From assembly GCA_965230845.1 (NCBI GenBank), contig OZ246021.1:57184-121183 (forward strand): a DNA stretch of 64,000 nt, in the 5' to 3' direction. The stretch is from Aquimarina sp. (GTDB taxonomy: Bacteria; Bacteroidota; Bacteroidia; Flavobacteriales; Flavobacteriaceae). Under the pieces are notes generated by a model that was not told the origin of the DNA, searched no databases, and saw nothing but the letters and a program-made list of their open reading frames with translations. Each line of letters begins with the position of its first letter. The stretch's first letter is position 1. The position numbers and the translations under genes were made by a program. Shown here piece by piece: positions 19,547 to 45,333 of this stretch.

Positions 19547-21426
19547 AGACTAATTCTTCTGCTGCGCGGATGTTTTACCTGGTATGAAAACTGTTTTTCC
19601 AGTTTTTGGTTAGCTTGTACATCTAGCTTCCAGGTCATTATTCCCTTTTTTGAATCGTAAACCGCTTGATCTGTTTGAACTTCATCCAGTTTGATATCTT
19701 TATTTTGGGAAACCGGTATACGATCTTCAACCGTGATATTTATGTTGCTTTTTTTGTTGTTTTTGATGGTGATTTTATACGCTCGATTTACAATTTTACT
19801 ATTACCAGTAAAGTTTTTGCTTTTGAAGTTTTTGAGTTGTTCTCTTTTTACCACAATATTAGGATCAACACCTAAAGAGACAGTCAAAGTGTCTGTAGTA
19901 TGCAATGGATCTATATTTGTTTTGCCTGCATAACTGCCTTCAAAGTAGATGTTGGCTTCTCCAGCGAGTAAATTGAACTGTTCCCAATTGGCAAGTTTTG
20001 CAGTTAGAAATACATTCTCATTTAATTCTGGAGCTACATAGTGATTATAATCTGTTCGGATTTCAAAATTATCGATTTCTATAATCGTAATATCAGCATT
20101 AGAAGGGATGCTGTATTTTTTCTTAATTTTAAATCGAGTATTCGTAATTCCTTCTTCTTTCACTTCGACTACTTCATTATAATACTCTTTTTTTTCTTTT
20201 TTTCTGGTATAACTAGATCTTGGAGAATAACGACCAGATGACCCAGAAGTGGAATACCCTGCAATTACTACTTCATCTAAAACGGAAGTGTCTTCCTCTA
20301 AAGAAATATTCATAACCGAAGAATAAATCGGAAGTGATTGAGATGAAAATCCTATGTACGAAAATGAAAGCTCTCTACCATCAGCAACTTCTAGTGTGTA
20401 ACGGCCATCAAAATCAGTTTGTGTTCCATTTGAGGTCCCTTTTTCGATAACATTAACTCCAGGTAAAGGTAATCCACCATCGTCCAGAACAATTCCGTTA
20501 ATGGTTTTTACAGTTGGATTGTATTGATAACCATATCGTTTTATTGCATTTTGCTGTCGGTTACTACCATAGCTAAAGTTTAAGTATTTTGGAGACACGT
20601 TAGGTTTGATATTATTAGTATTTGGATCACCCGTGGATAGTGTAATGTTTACGTTGTTCCAAGGAGTACCTGTTTGCTGGTATACATTGGCTTTGTAGGC
20701 CATTTTGATAGGATCCTTTATGCTTTGGGATTTGATATCGTATAACGGAAACCATCCCGCTTGAGTAACATTGTATTGTATCACAAGACTCAGTGTGGTA
20801 GCTACCGGAGCATCTAGTTTCACCTTGATCTCTCCCCGTTGTTCTTTGGTATCGTCATCCAACTTGTCAATTTGTTGGGTTATTGCAGATATTTCATCAG
20901 ATAGACGATCTATTTTTTGTGTATGCGTATAGGTTTCATTCTGAATTTCAATTGCTCTATCTCTATAATAGGCAGATATTTCTTTTACTTTTTCCAAAGA
21001 AAGAGATTCTGTTGTACTGGCGATACGCTGATTGTTTTCCAACAATTTTTTTTCCTGACCAAGTCCAGTTATGATATTTTCTAGCTTGTTTTTTTCAAGT
21101 AATAATTGTTCTAATTGCTTTTGAAGGGCAGTTAACTCTTCTGAAGTTTTTCTTTTTTCCAAATAGTCGATTCCAAAATTTATTGACAATATAGAAACGT
21201 TTTTAAGTCCTGAAATCTGAATACTATTCTCATTAATTGTAGGGGATAGGTCATGGAGTAAAATTTCGTTAGTCCCTGGTTTTAAAGAAACGTCAGCGGT
21301 TCTTTTTATTCGAGCACCAGTGAGATATACGGTGACGTCTTCAATAGTTGATACCGTCTTTTTTCCAGTATTTGCCAATGTAAGGTTAGCAATCAAAAGT
21401 AATATGGATAGTAATACAGCTCTCAT
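19543..21426 (-). CDS. DUF4139/DUF4140 family protein with an inserted carboxypeptidase-regulatory-like domain
   Basis: IEDVTVYLTGA start, coiled coil, AGWFPLYDI and QQTGTPW, C-terminal VEDRIPVS; internal PLPGVNV...TDFDG domain. Confidence 0.85.
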   Translation of the reverse strand: MRAVLLSILLLIANLTLANTGKKTVSTIEDVTVYLTGARIKRTADVSLKPGTNEILLHDLSPTINENSIQISGLKNVSILSINFGIDYLEKRKTSEELTALQKQLEQLLLEKNKLENIITGLGQEKKLLENNQRIASTTESLSLEKVKEISAYYRDRAIEIQNETYTHTQKIDRLSDEISAITQQIDKLDDDTKEQRGEIKVKLDAPVATTLSLVIQYNVTQAGWFPLYDIKSQSIKDPIKMAYKANVYQQTGTPWNNVNITLSTGDPNTNNIKPNVSPKYLNFSYGSNRQQNAIKRYGYQYNPTVKTINGIVLDDGGLPLPGVNVIEKGTSNGTQTDFDGRYTLEVADGRELSFSYIGFSSQSLPIYSSVMNISLEEDTSVLDEVVIAGYSTSGSSGRYSPRSSYTRKKEKKEYYNEVVEVKEEGITNTRFKIKKKYSIPSNADITIIEIDNFEIRTDYNHYVAPELNENVFLTAKLANWEQFNLLAGEANIYFEGSYAGKTNIDPLHTTDTLTVSLGVDPNIVVKREQLKNFKSKNFTGNSKIVNRAYKITIKNNKKSNINITVEDRIPVSQNKDIKLDEVQTDQAVYDSKKGIMTWKLDVQANQKLEKQFSYQVKHPRSRRISL

Positions 21427-38365: not shown

Positions 38366-38398
38366 GAAAGATCGGAAAATTTTATAACGAAAGAGTTC

Positions 38399-39688
38399 TT
38401 ACCGCAGTAAGAACTCTTTTAGTTTTTGATAACTATCTATAGGAATGTTTTGTTTCTCTTTGTCTAGAACACTCTGAATCTGCTCAGGAATTTCTACAGT
38501 AACATCCAAGGTATCTTCTACGATATCAAGGAATTTTACAGGATGAGCGGTTTCCAGAAAAATACCGTAATCTGTTCCATTTAATTGATGTTCCTTTAAA
38601 CCTAAATACCCAACAGCACCGTGTGGATCGGTGATATATCCACTAGTATCAAATACACTTTTCATTGCCTCTTTGGTTTGCAGATCATCAAAACTATAGG
38701 CGGAGAAAGAATCCTTTAGTACTTCAAAGTTGTTGCCAAATAACTCTTGAATTCTAATAAAATTACTAGGGTTACCTACATCCATCGCATTTGATATGGT
38801 AGCTTTTGAAGGTTTAGGTTCGTACTTTTCTGTTTGTAAATAAGAAACAACGGTATCATTGATATTGGTAGAAGCTATAAAATGCTTTACCGGAAGACCT
38901 AATTTTTTGGCGACAATACCCGCACAGATGTTTCCAAAATTACCACTAGGTACCGAAAATGTAATTTCTTTTCCTTTGTGTTTTACCTGCTTATAGGCAA
39001 ACAAAAAGTATAACAATTGTGGAAGCCATCTGGCTACATTGATAGAATTTGCTGAAGTTAGTTGAACACTATCAGTAATACTAGTGTCTAGAAATGCAGT
39101 TTTGACCATATCCTGGCAATCGTCAAAAACGCCATCAACTTCTAATGCAGTAATGTTTTGGCCAAGAGTCGTTAACTGCCTTTCCTGAATGTCACTTACT
39201 TTTCCTTTAGGATAGAGAATTACAACTTCGACTCCCTCAACTCCTAAGAATCCTTTTGCTACGGCTCCTCCTGTATCGCCGGAAGTCGCCACCAAAACAG
39301 TAACCTTGTTTTTATTATGTTGATTAAAATAACCCAGGCACCTAGCCATAAAACGAGCACCCACATCTTTGAATGCCATGGTTGGCCCATGAAACAATTC
39401 TAATGTTCCTATGTTGTCCTGAATATCTACTACAGGGAAATCAAAACTCAAAACATCCTTTAAAATATCTTTGAGTTCTTCTTCAGGAATTTCATCACCT
39501 ACAAATTGTTGGATCGTCCGAAAAGCAATTTCAATGTTATCCAACGTATCGATAGTTTCAAAAAAACTATCGGGCAGGGGAGTTATGTTTTCTGGAAAAT
39601 ACAAGCCCCTATCTGGCGCCAAACCTTTGATAACAGCTTCAGAAAAAGAAACTTTTGGTGCGTTATGATTTAAACTATAATATAACAT
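38399..39688 (-). CDS. thrC: Threonine synthase
   Basis: ELFHGPTMAFKD, ATSGDTG, SANSINVARW and VPSGNFGN motifs. Confidence 0.97.
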   Translation of the reverse strand: MLYYSLNHNAPKVSFSEAVIKGLAPDRGLYFPENITPLPDSFFETIDTLDNIEIAFRTIQQFVGDEIPEEELKDILKDVLSFDFPVVDIQDNIGTLELFHGPTMAFKDVGARFMARCLGYFNQHNKNKVTVLVATSGDTGGAVAKGFLGVEGVEVVILYPKGKVSDIQERQLTTLGQNITALEVDGVFDDCQDMVKTAFLDTSITDSVQLTSANSINVARWLPQLLYFLFAYKQVKHKGKEITFSVPSGNFGNICAGIVAKKLGLPVKHFIASTNINDTVVSYLQTEKYEPKPSKATISNAMDVGNPSNFIRIQELFGNNFEVLKDSFSAYSFDDLQTKEAMKSVFDTSGYITDPHGAVGYLGLKEHQLNGTDYGIFLETAHPVKFLDIVEDTLDVTVEIPEQIQSVLDKEKQNIPIDSYQKLKEFLLR

Positions 39689-40068: not shown

Positions 40069-41003
40069 TATGAATCGATTATTTTAACGCCTTTATCATT
40101 GATTTTTGAAACATGAATATCAAACGCAAGTCCCGTGGTATCATACACTTCTCGAATTGCAGCAGCAACATGATTAGCTGTTTCAGTTCCTTTGCTAAGC
40201 GCAAAGATCGAAGGTCCAGATCCTGAAATCCCACACCCAAGAGCTCCTTTACTCATTGCAGCTTCTTTCACTGCATTAAATTCAGGTATCAGAATGGATC
40301 GCAATGGCTCAATGATAACATCCTCCAGGCTACGACCAATAAGACCATAATCCTCAGTATACAATCCGGCTACAAGCCCACCAACATTTCCCCACTGCCG
40401 AATCCCATCTTTGAGGGTGATATTAGATTTAATTACAGAACGAGAATCTGAAGTTTTTACCTCGATTTGTGGATGAATTACTGTCATCATTAAATCTTCT
40501 GGGGTATGTAATTTAATAACATCGAGAGGAGAGTAACTACGAACTAGTGTAAAGCCGCCCAACAGGGCAGGGGCTACATTATCTGCATGTGCATTACCAC
40601 TTGCCAGTTTTTCTCCTTCCATAGCAAAGGCAACAAGATCCTGAGGCGAAAAAGGATTGCCTAGCAAATGATTAACCGCCCAAACAGCTCCGGCACTACT
40701 GGCAGCACTGCTCCCAATACCACTTCCTGCTTTTATTTTTTTATAAATCTCTATATCTACTCCCAGGGGTTGATCGTACTTTTTAAGCAAAGCTTCGACA
40801 GCAACACCCGCTACATTTTTGTGTGTTTCGATAGGGAGATCAGCACCTTCAATTTTGGTGATTTTTACACCTGGATCTTCATGAACGGAAATCACCATTT
40901 CGTCACCTACAGTATCCAAACAACATCCTAACACATCAAATCCACAGGATAGGTTGGCTACAGTAGCAGGAGCGAATATTTTAATACGTTTGTTCATCTC
41001 CAC
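40068..41003 (-). CDS. thrB: Homoserine kinase
   Basis: PATVANLSCGFD, GSGIGSSAAS, HADNVAP and ISGSGPS motifs. Confidence 0.97.
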   Translation of the reverse strand: MEMNKRIKIFAPATVANLSCGFDVLGCCLDTVGDEMVISVHEDPGVKITKIEGADLPIETHKNVAGVAVEALLKKYDQPLGVDIEIYKKIKAGSGIGSSAASSAGAVWAVNHLLGNPFSPQDLVAFAMEGEKLASGNAHADNVAPALLGGFTLVRSYSPLDVIKLHTPEDLMMTVIHPQIEVKTSDSRSVIKSNITLKDGIRQWGNVGGLVAGLYTEDYGLIGRSLEDVIIEPLRSILIPEFNAVKEAAMSKGALGCGISGSGPSIFALSKGTETANHVAAAIREVYDTTGLAFDIHVSKINDKGVKIIDS

Positions 41004-43447
41004 TATTTTTTACCTATTCTAATGATATCTGCAAAAATTCCTGAAGCAGTTACATCTGCTCCGGCACCTGCTCCTTTAACGATAAGAGGCTGTTTAGGAT
41101 ACCTGTCTGTATAAAAAAGAACAATATTATCACTACCCTCAAGGTTGTAAAAAGGATGATCGGCAGGAATGAATTGTAATCCTACTTTTGCCGTACCATC
41201 TTCGTATTGTGCTACATATTTTAATCGACTATCTTTTGCATTGGCTTCCTCAAGTATAGATTTAAAATGAGATTCATTTCCAGTTAATGAGGTGAAAAAA
41301 TCTTCCACATTATTAGTTTCCAAACTATCTGTAGGTAAAAAAGAATCATTTTCAATATCTTCTAGTTCCATGATTTTACCACTTTCTCTGGCTAGAATCA
41401 GAATTTTACGAGCTACATCAACACCACTTAGATCAATTTTTGGATCAGGCTCGGTATATCCTTCTTGCTGTGCTTGTTTTACTATATCATGAAAGGTAAC
41501 ACCTTCTTTGTAATTGTTGAAAACAAAATTGAGACTTCCAGATAAGACTGCCTGTATTTTGTGAATATTATCCCCAGAAGCAATAAGATTATTGAGTGTG
41601 TCTATAATCGGCAAACCAGCACCTACATTGGTTTCGTACAAGAACGAAGCATTAAATTTTCTCGATAGGTTTTTCAACTCTTCATAGTTGTTATACTCGT
41701 CGGCACAAGCAATTTTGTTACAGGTCACCACCGCCATACTTTCGGCCAGATAATATTTGTAAATTTTTGCAATGTCTGGGTTAGCTGTATTATCAACGAA
41801 TATAGAGTTTCGTAGGTTCATTTCCTTTGCTTTTTCAAAAAATGCCTTAGCATCTGCCTTTTCTCCGTTGGCAAGCGCTTCTTCCCATTGATCTAAAGCA
41901 ATACCTCCTTCATCAAAAATCATTTTTCGAGAATTCGACATACCGACCACTCTAATTTTTAGTCTTAGTTTATCTTTAAGATATTTTTTCTGCTGATCTA
42001 GCTGTTCTAATAATTTACTTCCTACATTTCCGACACCAGTAACAAACAAGTTTAATTGTTTTGTTTTTACCTCAAAGAATCTTTCGTGTAACGTATTCAG
42101 TGCTTTTTTGATATCTTTTTCTTCGATGACTACAGAAATATTTTTTTCTGAAGCTCCTTGAGCAATGGCTCTAATGTTGACATTGTTTTTTCCTAAAGTG
42201 CTAAACATTTTACCACTCAATCCCTGATGAGAATACATATTATCTCCAACAAGTGCGACAATGGCTGCCTTGTTTTCAATTTTTACAGGATCTAATCTCT
42301 TTTTTGCGATCTCAAACTCAAAAGTAGTATCCAAAACTGTTTTGGCTTTTGAAGCTTCAGATGCTTCTATCGCCAAACAGATAGAATGTTCTGAGGATGC
42401 TTGAGTGATGAGAATCACATTGATGTTATTAAGAAATAGCGTTTCGAACAAACGTTTTGAAAAACCTGGAATACCCACCATACCACTACCTTCCAAAGAG
42501 ATGATGGAGATGTTATCAATATGACTAATCCCTGTAACTGGTTTTTCCCGGTCCGAGACTTCTCTTGTGATTAATGTCCCTTTAACTTCGGGTTCGAAAG
42601 TGTTTTTGATAACTATAGGGATATTTTTATCCAATACCGGGTGAATAGTTGGTGGATAAATCACCTTCGCTCCAAAATGAGAGAGCTCCATAGCTTCATG
42701 ATATGAAATATGAGCTACTGGTTTGGCTTGTTTTACCAATTTTGGATTAGCGGTGTACATCCCACTTACATCTGTCCAGATTTGTAACTCATTGGCATCC
42801 ATTGCAGCAGCCAGAATTGCAGCAGTAAAATCGGATCCTCCTCTTCCTAGAGTAGTGGGTTCTCCATCTTGTGTTCTAGCCACAAATCCTGGAAACAGAC
42901 ATACCTTGTGTTTTGTAACAGAAGCGAACTTTTGAATCCTTTGATTGGTTTCTTTGTAATCTATAGAAACTTTTGAGTTTACAGTTTTAACAATCAGGTC
43001 TCTTGAATCCTTTAGAAGAATATCAAGCCCTTTTACTTTAGCCGCTTCAGATATAATATAAGAAGACAACATTTCACCAAAACTTGAAATTACCGAAGCA
43101 GTTTTTTCAGACAATTCACTTAATAGAAATACTCCTTCACAAAGAGATTCTAGCGCATTAAGTTCAGATTTTACTTTACTGATAATAGCACTTTGAGAAG
43201 TGATAGGAATTAATTCTTTTATGGCATCAAAATGCCTTTGCTCGATAGTAGCAAGCGTTTGTTTATATGCTTCATTATTGTTTGAGGCTTCTTCTCCTGC
43301 CTGTAATAATAGGTCTGTAATTCCTCCCATCGCAGATACTACCACATACAAAGGTGTGGTAGAAGATTGGTTTTCAATGATATGAATTACCTTTTCTATG
43401 GTAGCCGCATTGGCTACAGACGAACCTCCAAATTTTAGAACGTTCAT
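41003..43447 (-). CDS. thrA: Bifunctional aspartokinase/homoserine dehydrogenase I
   Basis: LKFGGSSV, LGRGGSD, two ACT domains, GVGNVG, YETNVGAGLP and GAGADVTA motifs. Confidence 0.98.
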   Translation of the reverse strand: MNVLKFGGSSVANAATIEKVIHIIENQSSTTPLYVVVSAMGGITDLLLQAGEEASNNNEAYKQTLATIEQRHFDAIKELIPITSQSAIISKVKSELNALESLCEGVFLLSELSEKTASVISSFGEMLSSYIISEAAKVKGLDILLKDSRDLIVKTVNSKVSIDYKETNQRIQKFASVTKHKVCLFPGFVARTQDGEPTTLGRGGSDFTAAILAAAMDANELQIWTDVSGMYTANPKLVKQAKPVAHISYHEAMELSHFGAKVIYPPTIHPVLDKNIPIVIKNTFEPEVKGTLITREVSDREKPVTGISHIDNISIISLEGSGMVGIPGFSKRLFETLFLNNINVILITQASSEHSICLAIEASEASKAKTVLDTTFEFEIAKKRLDPVKIENKAAIVALVGDNMYSHQGLSGKMFSTLGKNNVNIRAIAQGASEKNISVVIEEKDIKKALNTLHERFFEVKTKQLNLFVTGVGNVGSKLLEQLDQQKKYLKDKLRLKIRVVGMSNSRKMIFDEGGIALDQWEEALANGEKADAKAFFEKAKEMNLRNSIFVDNTANPDIAKIYKYYLAESMAVVTCNKIACADEYNNYEELKNLSRKFNASFLYETNVGAGLPIIDTLNNLIASGDNIHKIQAVLSGSLNFVFNNYKEGVTFHDIVKQAQQEGYTEPDPKIDLSGVDVARKILILARESGKIMELEDIENDSFLPTDSLETNNVEDFFTSLTGNESHFKSILEEANAKDSRLKYVAQYEDGTAKVGLQFIPADHPFYNLEGSDNIVLFYTDRYPKQPLIVKGAGAGADVTASGIFADIIRIGKK

Positions 43448-43545
43448 AATATGTTTTTTAGATTGAAATAAAAGTAATAAAGCTTAATTTTCGGTAGCTT
43501 AATCTTAATAAACTACGTACTCTTTCTGTGGTGATATATAATGTA

Positions 43546-43650
43546 TTAACCCCTAGGGGTAATAATAGTACCCGTGATAGAAGTTCTCCCAGAAAGGGTA
43601 ATCATTTCTAACCTAATCCATGAAGCCGAGATGTAAACGGTACTTAACAT
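43546..43650 (-). CDS. Putative Thr/Ile-rich thr operon leader peptide (34 aa; 19 aa from the second ATG at 43605)
   Basis: MLSTVYISASWIRLEMITLSGRTSITGTIITPRG-stop, lying between a TACATTTG promoter box (43674-43681) and thrA. Confidence 0.7.
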   Translation of the reverse strand: MLSTVYISASWIRLEMITLSGRTSITGTIITPRG

Positions 43651-43673
43651 TAGTTTGCTTTATATTATAAGTT

Positions 43674-43681
43674 CAAATGTA
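43674..43681 (-). promoter_or_regulatory. -7 promoter box (TACATTTG) for the thr leader/operon
   Basis: Exact TAnnTTTG match on the minus strand. Confidence 0.65.
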
Positions 43682-43797
43682 TAATTTTTTACTTTTAGAG
43701 AAAATTAAATTAGAACTATCCTTAAACTTTTGTTAATTCAATAATATAGGTATAGTTTCGTTGTAGAATTCTCAAAAAAAATAAGCAAAGCAAGCTC

Positions 43798-45333
43798 ATG
43801 AAAATATTTTCAGCATCACAAATGCGTATGGCAGACGAAGTTACCATAAAATCAGAGAAAATAACTTCTTTAGAATTAATGGAACGGGCTGCAGGTCAAA
43901 TTTTTAATCTTTTGCATCATCGATTACAAGGAGCACAAATACCTATCCATGTGTTTTGTGGTATAGGAAATAATGGAGGAGATGGATTGGTGATTTCAAG
44001 ATTATTAGTAGAACATGGTTATAATGTAAAAACCTACATTGTTAATTTTAGTGAGAATCGATCCAAAGATTTTCTGGTGAATTATGATCGATTAAAGGAA
44101 ATATCAAAAGAATGGCCTTTCCAAATTAAATCTGAGGAAGATTTTCCTACGGTTCAATACCAGGATATGGTGATAGACGCCATCTTTGGGATTGGGTTAA
44201 ATAGACCGTTGGTACCTTGGGTGACCCAGCTTATTAAACATATCAATAATGCACGTTGTTTTACGCTTTCTGTTGATATCCCTTCAGGTTTGTACGACTA
44301 CAAAAAACCTGATGATCCTGAAGGAGTTATTTTTGCAGATGTAACGGTCACTTTTCAATTACCTAAGTTGGTCTTTTTCTTACCGCAAACTGGAGGTTAT
44401 ACTAAAGAGATAGAGGTAATTGATATAGGATTAGATCGAAATTTTTTGCATCAGACACCCGGTATTGCAGAGTTGATTAACAAAAATGAGGTAGTTCCTT
44501 TATACCGTTCTCGACATAAATATAGTCATAAAGGTACTTTTGGACATTGTGTATTGATTGGAGGAAGTTATGGTAAGATAGGAAGTATGGTATTGGCCAC
44601 CAAAGCAGCTTTAAAAATGGGAGCAGGTTTGGCTACTGCTTATGTTCCCGAATGTGGATATGAAGTATTACAAACCACTGTGCCAGAAGCCATGGTGATT
44701 ACCGATAGTGATGATGAGCTGGAAGAGATCAATTTGGATTTTGAACCATCTGCAGTTGGTATAGGAATGGGGTTGGGAACCGATGAGAAAACGATTAAAG
44801 CGTTTGAAGAGTTTTTGAAGGAAAATAAAGCTCCTATGGTTATTGATGCTGATGCTATCAATTGTATGGCCAAAAGACCTGAGCTTTTAGAACATCTTCC
44901 TTTGCAAACTATTATTACACCACATCCTAAAGAGCTGGAACGTTTAATAGGAAAATGGGAGGATGATTTTGACAAAATAAGAAAAGCACAGGAGTTTTCT
45001 GCTAAGCATCGTTGTGTTCTTATAATAAAAGGAGCTAACTCTGTCATTATATATGAAGATCAAATGTATGTTAATAATTCTGGGAATCCCGGTATGGCTA
45101 CGGCTGGTAGTGGAGATGTGCTAACAGGAATGCTTACTGGACTTTTGTCACAAGGATATGATCCAATTCGCGCAGCGGTGTTAGGCACCTATTTACATGG
45201 TAGTGCTGGAGACCTGATTGCTCAAAAAAATGGCTTTGAAGCGTTAATTGCTGGAGATATCGTGAATAATATTGGTCAGGCTTATTTGGAGTTGTTTAGG
45301 CAGCCACAGCAAAAGGCACAAGAACAAAAATGA
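43798..45333 (+). CDS. nnr: NAD(P)H-hydrate epimerase/dehydratase
   Basis: LMERAA, GNNGGDG, DIPSG, HKGTFG, DADA, TPHPKE and ATAGSGDVL motifs. Confidence 0.96.
   Translation: MKIFSASQMRMADEVTIKSEKITSLELMERAAGQIFNLLHHRLQGAQIPIHVFCGIGNNGGDGLVISRLLVEHGYNVKTYIVNFSENRSKDFLVNYDRLKEISKEWPFQIKSEEDFPTVQYQDMVIDAIFGIGLNRPLVPWVTQLIKHINNARCFTLSVDIPSGLYDYKKPDDPEGVIFADVTVTFQLPKLVFFLPQTGGYTKEIEVIDIGLDRNFLHQTPGIAELINKNEVVPLYRSRHKYSHKGTFGHCVLIGGSYGKIGSMVLATKAALKMGAGLATAYVPECGYEVLQTTVPEAMVITDSDDELEEINLDFEPSAVGIGMGLGTDEKTIKAFEEFLKENKAPMVIDADAINCMAKRPELLEHLPLQTIITPHPKELERLIGKWEDDFDKIRKAQEFSAKHRCVLIIKGANSVIIYEDQMYVNNSGNPGMATAGSGDVLTGMLTGLLSQGYDPIRAAVLGTYLHGSAGDLIAQKNGFEALIAGDIVNNIGQAYLELFRQPQQKAQEQK

Follow-up and report, generated by a model that had tools for sequence, protein, structure and literature searches.

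A probable threonine- and isoleucine-sensing leader peptide upstream of thrA in Flavobacteriaceae that ends in a hairpin and lacks a classical terminator

Introduction

How does a leader peptide control a biosynthetic operon when no terminator follows it? The question is raised by the threonine operon in a 64,000-nucleotide stretch of the genome of an Aquimarina species (assembly GCA_965230845.1, contig OZ246021.1, positions 57,184 to 121,183 of the forward strand), which we call the window and whose own numbering is used unless another contig is named. The operon, identified by its Pfam domains as thrA-thrB-ridA-thrC, lies on the minus strand of the window, with a leader region upstream of thrA. 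Textbook leader-peptide attenuation is defined by a terminator/antiterminator switch; the thr leader keeps the sensor of such a system and has lost the switch.

An earlier reading of the letters of this DNA (the original prediction) described a -7 promoter box, a 34-codon upstream open reading frame (uORF) rich in Thr and Ile, short segments able to form mutually exclusive stems, and no classical terminator in the 98 nt before thrA. The box, the uORF, the segments, the spacing and the count of five Thr and four Ile residues are all correct in every coordinate and number. Here we show that the uORF and a GC hairpin at its end are conserved across the family, and weigh the ways in which this element might act on the operon.

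Results

A Thr/Ile-rich reading frame is conserved upstream of thrA

The leader and the gene that it precedes comprise the following features.

41003..43447, minus strand: thrA, encoding a fused aspartokinase-homoserine dehydrogenase of 814 aa, first gene of the operon (Pfam AA_kinase, ACT, NAD_binding_3 and Homoserine_dh)
43546..43650, minus strand: leader uORF of 34 codons plus TAA, encoding MLSTVYISASWIRLEMITLSGRTSITGTIITPRG, with its ATG at 43650 and its TAA at 43548-43546
43558..43584, minus strand: putative sensor codon cluster read from the sequence, codons 23-31 (T S I T G T I I T), C 27%, G 11%
43544..43564, minus strand: hairpin 1, with the core ACCC-(CUAG)-GGGU at 43560-43549, covering the final sense codons and the stop

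The final 19 residues of the uORF hold the five Thr and four Ile, the 5' arm of hairpin 1 is formed by the final Thr codon, ACC, and a 98-nt spacer lies between the stop codon and the thrA ATG at 43447. We compared this leader with two sets of relatives: thrA loci from 35 Flavobacteriaceae genomes, and a survey of one genome per genus, in which thrA was located in 46 of 61 genera and 40 upstream regions were retrieved. A Thr/Ile-rich uORF ending in or just past a GC hairpin is present in 37 of these 40 Flavobacteriaceae genera with thrA, as well as in all Aquimarina, and the hairpin lies 76 to ~120 nt 5' of the thrA ATG in most leaders and farther away in a few. The median uORF is 34 codons long. 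Between genera the peptide sequence diverges, while codon content, reading frame and manner of ending stay constant.

In the uORF frame, 61 of 63 non-redundant leaders have an ATG-initiated ORF of 24 codons or more that reaches into the hairpin, compared with 11 and 4 leaders for the other two frames. Thr and Ile together make up 53% of the last 12 uORF codons family-wide, against 13.8% in the host proteome (long open reading frames). By both measures the uORF is far beyond chance expectation. The element is also specific to its position: a covariance model made from 30 leaders and run on 61 family genomes under strict filters gave exactly one match per genome in 15 of the 61, and all 15 matches lie directly upstream of an independently located thrA. 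A pattern scan of the host genome revealed no second copy of the motif, its sole look-alike being inside a radical-SAM-like coding gene.

The suggestion that this is a Thr/Ile leader-peptide element of the thr operon is therefore upheld by its presence in 37 of 40 genera and by the frame and enrichment tests, and we conclude that the conserved uORF very probably encodes a Thr/Ile-sensing leader peptide.

Several lineage-specific features of the uORF region were also observed. Two Kordia metagenome-assembled genomes carry an extra ~60-codon open reading frame for a hydrophobic peptide between the Thr/Ile uORF with its hairpin and thrA, so that the leader lies ~305 nt from thrA, compared with the usual ~100 nt. 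Aquimarina leaders (L002-L013 and L026) conserve at the RNA level the element (A/U)CUUCUAU, which encodes Thr/Ser-Ser-Ile, ~30 nt upstream of hairpin 1; it is able to pair with UAGGGG of the hairpin 1 3' arm over 7 bp, G-U pairs included. This CUUCUA:UAGGGG pairing was rejected as a candidate, being not significant against codon shuffles. A +1 frame continuing into thrA is open in the window and, judged by eye, is not conserved.

The uORF stop codon is embedded in a hairpin conserved as a structure

Hairpin 1 in the host species has 8 bp with one bulge and a predicted stability of -6.1 kcal/mol (all folding in this study is thermodynamic, not co-transcriptional). Across the alignments its A-CCC...GGG-U core is invariant, with the general form (A)CCC(C)-loop-(G)GGG(U), whereas loops differ in both length and sequence (CUAG, UUAG, UUUG, UUG, UAU, GUAA, GAUU and others). 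The next outer pair covaries, being U-A in some leaders and A-U in others. The polarity of the hairpin is reversed in one leader from another Bacteroidia family (L112, family f13), which reads ACGGGG-UAA-CCCGU, and this reversal indicates that structure is what selection keeps. In the alignment that the original prediction had proposed, both the uORF and the ACCCCTAGGGGT hairpin that spans its final codons are conserved in Flavobacteriaceae, and also in several other Bacteroidia families.

The stop codon is positioned with similar consistency. In 58 of 63 leaders it falls -7 to +3 nt from the end of hairpin 1, either inside the loop or no more than 3 nt from the 3' arm; it is UAA in 50, UAG in 13 and UGA in none. 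A DNA palindrome serving as a transcription-factor operator was considered as another reading of the hairpin sequence and is disfavoured because the loop length is variable.

L112 itself is a type B leader (defined below) ~100 nt upstream of thrA. Its uORF ends ...ACU ACG GGG UAA CCCGU, with the stop codon within a GNRA-like loop, and a 26-nt G-free, C-rich run, CUUCACCACCAUAUUCCCUAUCCGUC, stands immediately after the reversed hairpin.

The missing terminator is a trait of the thr leader

Two further hairpins lie between hairpin 1 and thrA.

43494..43516, minus strand: hairpin 2, with arms GUAGUUUA and UAAGCUAC and the loop UUAAGAU, -6.1 kcal/mol, no U-run after it
43465..43500, minus strand: weak alternative hairpin 3 and its U-rich tail UAUUACUUUUAUUUC, with AAGCU at 43500-43496 paired to AGCUU at 43484-43480, -2.4 kcal/mol

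A terminator scan of 43300-43900 found no terminator-like site, hairpin 3 included. The U content of their tails rules out hairpin 1 as a canonical terminator and hairpin 2 as a terminator. In related leaders the first 8 nt after hairpin 1 contain a mean of 3.3 U, and a large subgroup whose uORFs end in ...TTPLG has a tail, AAGCAACUAU, that begins AAGCAAC and holds 0-2 U in 8 nt. Some 50 of 58 leaders have a hairpin at +24 to +34, and the 8-nt tail after it averages 2.5 U. RNAalifold applied to 12 Aquimarina sequences gives hairpin 2 six pairs, two of them with compensatory double changes (for example GUAGUUU:AAACUAC versus GUAAUUC:GAAUUAC). Hairpin 3, which shares part of its 5' arm with the 3' arm of hairpin 2, is the sole terminator-like candidate and a poor one; by eye, a similar arrangement is found elsewhere only in L009 and L012.

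In the host genome, the his and trp leaders look quite different. Upstream of hisG, a uORF encoding MRNIFIHHHHSNIFAQAW is followed by AAAAACCCGUUUGAGCAAUUCAAACGGGUUUUUUGUUUUC, and upstream of trpE a uORF encoding MKLFLSNNWWWSSRNVNVVK is followed by AAAAAAGGCUUGUCAUUCACGACAAGCCUUUUUUUAUUG; each has a long GC stem and a U-run (U7-U8), and both are textbook attenuators. Because these leaders carry strong terminators, the missing terminator is a trait of the thr leader and not of the lineage. It follows that the thr leader must switch the operon some other way, perhaps through the termination factor Rho. The claim that no classical terminator precedes thrA is thus real, family-wide and specific to this leader, on the combined evidence of the scan, the tail U content and the hisG and trpE controls.

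Both control leaders lie on contig C1, outside the window. That of hisG, at about 20367-20530, has the strong terminator AAAAACCCGTTTGAGCAATTCAAACGGGTTTTTTGTTTTC and scores 29 bits against Rfam His_leader, below threshold; that of trpE, at about 1479807-1479960, has the terminator AAAAAAGGCTTGTCATTCACGACAAGCCTTTTTTTATTG and scores 57.6 bits against Bacteroid-trp (RF01692; gathering threshold 49). They also score weakly as Thr_leader, at 27 and 23 bits, because of their generic attenuator shape. For the thr leader itself, an Rfam cmscan of 43350-43850 at E <= 10 gave three chance-level matches to unrelated families and none to Thr_leader (RF00506) or RF01692.

The thr leaders of other Bacteroidia follow two designs, one classical with a strong terminator (L118, L122 and L124) and one, shared with the leader in the window, that we term type B (L109, L110, L111, L112 and L127). 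To judge from its sequence, the leader in the window resembles a classical attenuator in having an open reading frame enriched in end-product codons upstream of a biosynthetic operon; it departs from one in having no intrinsic terminator between this frame and the first gene.

An unstructured, G-poor tract follows hairpin 1

In place of a terminator, hairpin 1 is followed by a stretch of unusual composition.

43517..43548, minus strand: unstructured G-poor tract, a candidate platform for a single-strand-binding factor resembling a Rho utilization (Rut) site, made up of the AU spacer UAAUACAUUAUAUAU at 43548-43534, the C box CACCAC at 43533-43528 and the bases that follow

Position-specific composition of the related leaders shows 0-8% G for 15 nt after hairpin 1, and then 27-42% C. 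The C-rich box falls at +14 to +23 and reads CACCAC in the window and YCCGUCC, CUUCAGG or CUUCGG in other leaders, yet its spacing from hairpin 1 is constant at 13-15 nt. Over the 30 nt past hairpin 1, the mean ensemble free energy is -0.46 kcal/mol, compared with -1.31 kcal/mol for shuffles of the same bases (p 2e-11) and -2.44 kcal/mol for background 30-mers upstream of host genes (p 5e-21), and the same 30 nt hold 9.1% G against 16.0% in the background (p 2e-13) and 20.5% C against 15.2% (p 8e-9); these p-values treat related sequences as independent and are hence inflated, although the direction is clear. The whole spacer from hairpin 1 to the thrA ATG has a C/G ratio of 2.4, against 1.0 in the background. 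By composition and folding, then, the end of the uORF adjoins a C>G unstructured region as it does in uORF-mediated Rho attenuators, which is a resemblance only.

Alternative pairings are not shared across the family

A classical alternative-hairpin attenuator with a weak AU-rich intrinsic terminator would account for the leader differently. Under that explanation segment 2, either the 5' arm of hairpin 2 or the C box, would be the partner of the regulatory uORF codons (segment 1), hairpin 2 would act as the antiterminator (2:3), and hairpin 3 with its U-rich tail would be the terminator (3:4). The scheme of the original prediction, built on TACCC, GGGTA, TACCC and GGGGT, is a variant of it. 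All four of these segments are present in the window (TACCC at 43600-43596, GGGTA at 43573-43569, TACCC at 43561-43557 and GGGGT at 43553-43549), and the 1:2, 2:3 and 3:4 stems that they form are feasible there, at -7.4, -4.3 and -6.1 kcal/mol. A longer helix of 14 bp joins two further segments.

43585..43600, minus strand: uORF segment UACCCUUUCUGGGAGA, which pairs with the C box region in the host species only, enclosing the putative sensor codons and hairpin 1 in minimum-free-energy folds
43518..43534, minus strand: partner of this species-specific helix, UCACCACAGAAAGAGUA, overlapping the C box

This helix (43600-43585:43534-43518) is predicted at -20.1 kcal/mol, compared with -12.6 +/- 2.4 kcal/mol for non-cognate pairs, and beats 25 of 25 and 24 of 25 non-cognate partners in two tests. 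Also in keeping with a classical design, hairpin 3 (AAGCU:AGCUU with its tail) overlaps hairpin 2; 28% of leaders, chiefly those of Aquimarina and one further subgroup, have Thr/Ile codons complementary (z < -1.64) to the 5' arm of hairpin 2; and classical thr attenuators do exist in some Bacteroidia families, as noted above.

These pairings do not extend to relatives, however. The GGGTA segment is replaced by GGTAC, CGTAC, AGTAC or TCTAT within Aquimarina itself, and the 14-bp helix of uORF and C box is likewise not conserved even in that genus. When uORFs were paired with the 46 nt past the hairpin, cognate and non-cognate duplexes had the same energy (-10.3 versus -10.3 kcal/mol; p 0.48 and 0.91), and shuffle tests of three region pairs gave mean z values between -0.5 and 0, so that no co-evolving complementarity is seen family-wide. 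Hairpin 2 forms in free and ribosome-masked folds alike, and hairpin 3, at merely -2.4 kcal/mol and missed by the terminator scan, bears little likeness to the genuine terminators of the host genome, those of the his and trp leaders included. Mutually exclusive pairings that depend on ribosome position are therefore not a feature of the family, although they may occur in the window itself, where species-specific stems exist. Of the stems first proposed, the 3:4 hairpin stands as a conserved element, while 1:2 and 2:3, although feasible in the window, are particular to the species. We accordingly consider a classical attenuator unlikely.

A simple translational switch is also disfavoured by folding. 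Placing a ribosome on the putative sensor codons leaves the predicted accessibility of the thrA start region as it was (0.57 against 0.56), and, this accessibility being independent of ribosome position, control through the thrA start was set aside on these predictions. The C box is mostly unpaired in both free and ribosome-masked states. As no thermodynamic RNA switch is predicted, hairpin 1 is the only element that a ribosome can toggle in all of these leaders.

Three further pairings were tried and rejected. Pairing of a freed GGGG 3' arm with the C box, akin to the hiding of a Rut site in mgtL, was worse for real downstream sequences than for shuffles or background, and is impossible in L112; pairing of the same GGGG with a UUUC(AA) motif near the thrA start falls because that motif is not universal. 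A long-range helix between ACGGAC in the 5' part of the uORF and GUCCGU in the box is real in one subgroup, with a family-wide mean z of ~0 and equal cognate and non-cognate energies. The subgroup is that with uORFs ending ...TTPLG, within L068-L107 (e.g. L073, L076, L086, L090); it carries ACGGAC(AUA) early in the uORF, with the peptide motif TDIK, and ACGGAC is exactly complementary to its C-box GUCCGU, a possible lineage-specific long-range helix not seen in Aquimarina.

Locus, operon and promoter

The remaining features of the locus are as follows.

43674..43681, minus strand: Bacteroidota-type -7 promoter box TACATTTG, fitting TAnnTTTG by sequence and ending 23 nt before the uORF ATG
41003-40068, minus strand: thrB (Pfam GHMP_kinases)
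40068-39700, minus strand: RidA-family gene (Pfam Ribonuc_L-PSP)
39688-38399, minus strand: thrC (Pfam Thr_synth_N and PALP)

The transcription start is placed from the -7 box, using the promoter-box spacing rule of PMC6847099; 57 of 62 related leaders have the pattern TAnnTTT[G/A] in the 60 nt before the uORF ATG. An NAD(P)H-hydrate repair gene starting at 43798 is divergent from the operon, the intergenic region being 350 nt. The thrA protein is 99% identical to its counterpart in Aquimarina spongiae DSM 22623, and the window as a whole shows about 99% identity to that species.

Within the operon, the GTG start of thrB overlaps the thrA stop at 41003, and the RidA/YjgF-family gene inserted between thrB and thrC has a start that overlaps the thrB stop. 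A strong 14-bp bidirectional terminator, GAAAGAGTTCTTACCGCAGTAAGAACTCTTTT, at 38389-38420 marks the convergent end of thrC and its plus-strand neighbour, and exemplifies what a genuine terminator looks like in this genome. A second fused aspartokinase-homoserine dehydrogenase paralogue is encoded at 4078782-4081202 of contig C1, outside the window (806 aa, ~33% identity over the N-terminal 200 aa). It starts 11 nt past the preceding gene, and as its upstream region holds no leader frame, it probably belongs to a different operon, perhaps one for methionine. The Pfam domain LeuA_dimer (PF08502) has no match in the 99.99%-complete host genome and is present in 14 of 14 control genomes; a canonical 2-isopropylmalate synthase may be missing from the host, which could then be auxotrophic for leucine.

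Discussion

We have found that a Thr/Ile-rich leader frame precedes thrA throughout most of the Flavobacteriaceae genera surveyed, and that it ends in a GC hairpin followed by a C-rich, unstructured tract where a terminator might be expected. As to how the leader acts, we tentatively favour factor-dependent termination by Rho within the C>G tract, blocked by a ribosome stalled on the Thr/Ile codons near the hairpin, a reading that we regard as plausible though somewhat short of an even chance. Rho is known as a factor that reads unstructured C>G RNA and stops transcription, and a rho gene is present in the host genome (a 550-aa open reading frame).

When Thr and Ile are plentiful, the ribosome would pass hairpin 1, terminate at the stop codon and depart, and the hairpin would refold. 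With the ribosome gone, the G-poor run of Thr/Ile codons, hairpin 1 (hiding the sole G-run) and the C-rich tract would together form an exposed Rut-like loading site, at which Rho or another factor that binds single-stranded RNA could halt transcription ahead of any thrA translation. Under a shortage of charged tRNA-Thr or tRNA-Ile, the ribosome would park on the codons just before and over hairpin 1, and at the last Thr/Ile codons would hold hairpin 1 in its mRNA channel. So placed, it might occupy or sterically shield the site while RNA polymerase continues into thrA. Since the hairpin would refold once the ribosome leaves, the OFF state would be one in which the ribosome is gone, the hairpin folded and the tract exposed, and the ON state one in which the ribosome is parked at the uORF end. 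As the tract extends for no more than ~30 nt before hairpin 2 begins, we propose that the loading site also takes in the Thr/Ile codon run as its upstream half. Shielding of adjacent or intragenic Rut sites by stalled ribosomes is established for tnaC, speFL and cruR (PMC12360218).

Several considerations weigh against this proposal. An unstructured tract of ~30 nt is short for a Rut site, so that the model needs the upstream codon run to be within the site, and the p-values that set the tract apart are inflated by relatedness. A ribosome stalled early, at T4 or I7, would shield nothing. A stalled ribosome also uncouples from RNA polymerase, which usually favours Rho. Finally, the composition of the tract would also suit an RNase, an RNA-binding protein or a ribosome standby site.

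This last point leads to post-transcriptional control, in which hairpin 1 and the tract would serve for RNase entry, for protein binding or as a ribosome standby site, and the parked ribosome would alter mRNA stability or thrA translation while transcription is not ended prematurely. The conserved single-stranded tract does adjoin a stable hairpin, Bacteroidia ribosomes, which do not use Shine-Dalgarno pairing to initiate, are affected by the structure of the leader (PMC6847099), and steady-state parking on hairpin 1 under starvation would need no coupling of transcription and translation. Set against this, the predicted accessibility of the thrA start is the same whether or not a ribosome occupies the leader, the tract is ~70-80 nt away from the thrA ATG, and the explanation comes without a known candidate factor. 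We judge it improbable, to about the same degree as a classical attenuator.

Hairpin 1 might instead be a non-canonical terminator or a hairpin-stabilised pause, acting together with a weak, AU-rich hybrid and, downstream, the GC-richer C-box DNA, with the ribosome controlling its folding. The fixed spacing of 13-15 nt between hairpin 1 and the C box would suit such a pause, as would the AU-rich, G-free spacer and the true U-run that follows hairpin 1 in some lineages (L021, GGGGUUUUUU; also L025 and L102). However, the large subgroup with AAGCAAC tails has 0-2 U in 8 nt. Moreover, a non-starved following ribosome would also block folding and an early-stalled one would permit it, so that starvation would lower thrA expression. 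Termination or pausing at hairpin 1 is thus quite unlikely. That the uORF is a functional gene for a small hydrophobic peptide, or a chance frame, with no role in sensing is highly improbable: its N-terminal part, MFSTVFISALL, is conserved within Aquimarina and looks hydrophobic, but across genera only Thr/Ile content, frame and the end in the hairpin are conserved, and the element is always and only upstream of thrA.

In function the leader resembles one class of known systems, and in layout a second. Like enterobacterial thrL (RF00506), it is a short Thr- and Ile-rich leader frame directly upstream of thrA, and the expected logic is the same, with scarce charged tRNA-Thr or tRNA-Ile stalling the ribosome and turning the operon on. 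Unlike thrL, the flavobacterial leader is without a terminator or conserved antiterminator, its uORF is longer, its stop codon lies within a GC hairpin and an unstructured C>G tract comes next; the two leaders show no match in sequence or structure. It shares with Bacteroid-trp (RF01692) and with the hisG and trpE leaders of its own genome a promoter-proximal frame with cognate codons (HHHH and WWW in those leaders) before a biosynthetic operon, but has none of the long GC stems and U7-U8 runs of hisG and trpE.

The second class consists of tnaC of Escherichia coli, speFL, cruR of Bordetella, and mgtL and corL of Salmonella, in which a uORF end adjoins a C>G unstructured region with no terminator (PMC12360218). 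In those systems the ribosome is stalled at the stop codon by a small molecule that acts on the nascent peptide, or by Pro codons with RNA restructuring; here, by analogy, stalling would occur at hungry Thr/Ile codons, and no restructuring is predicted. A resemblance in layout is also offered by lambda tR1, where rutA, the boxB hairpin and rutB form two C-rich single-stranded segments split by a small GC hairpin. The analogy goes no further than layout, as the upstream segment of the thr leader is coding and no hairpin-binding protein is known for it.

We found no description of this leader in Rfam, nor an account of any Bacteroidota thr leader in the searchable literature; an older comparative paper may list candidates, the 2004 study by Vitreschak and co-workers in FEMS Microbiology Letters, which reportedly mentions candidate attenuators in Bacteroidetes/Chlorobi. 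More broadly, it is conceivable, if doubtful, that Flavobacteriaceae and several other Bacteroidia families share a terminator-less leader class in which codon run, stop-embedded hairpin and C-rich tract are a Rho loading site occupied by the stalled ribosome, with no RNA switch, and which evolved from, and coexists with, classical attenuators of the same operon. The conservation of the leader in dozens of genera, while the his and trp leaders of the host retain the switch, suggests that its unusual output has been selected.

As the uORF is unannotated and the motif absent from Rfam, thr regulation is at present invisible in flavobacterial annotations. If the leader is Rho-dependent, it would be the first such amino-acid biosynthetic attenuator in Bacteroidota, and its logic, a ribosome parked on its own Rut site, would be simple and portable. 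Bacteroidota ribosomes ignore Shine-Dalgarno sequences, and Bacteroidota Rho carries a large insertion. The type B leader provides a handle on transcription-translation coupling and on Rho site choice in this phylum.

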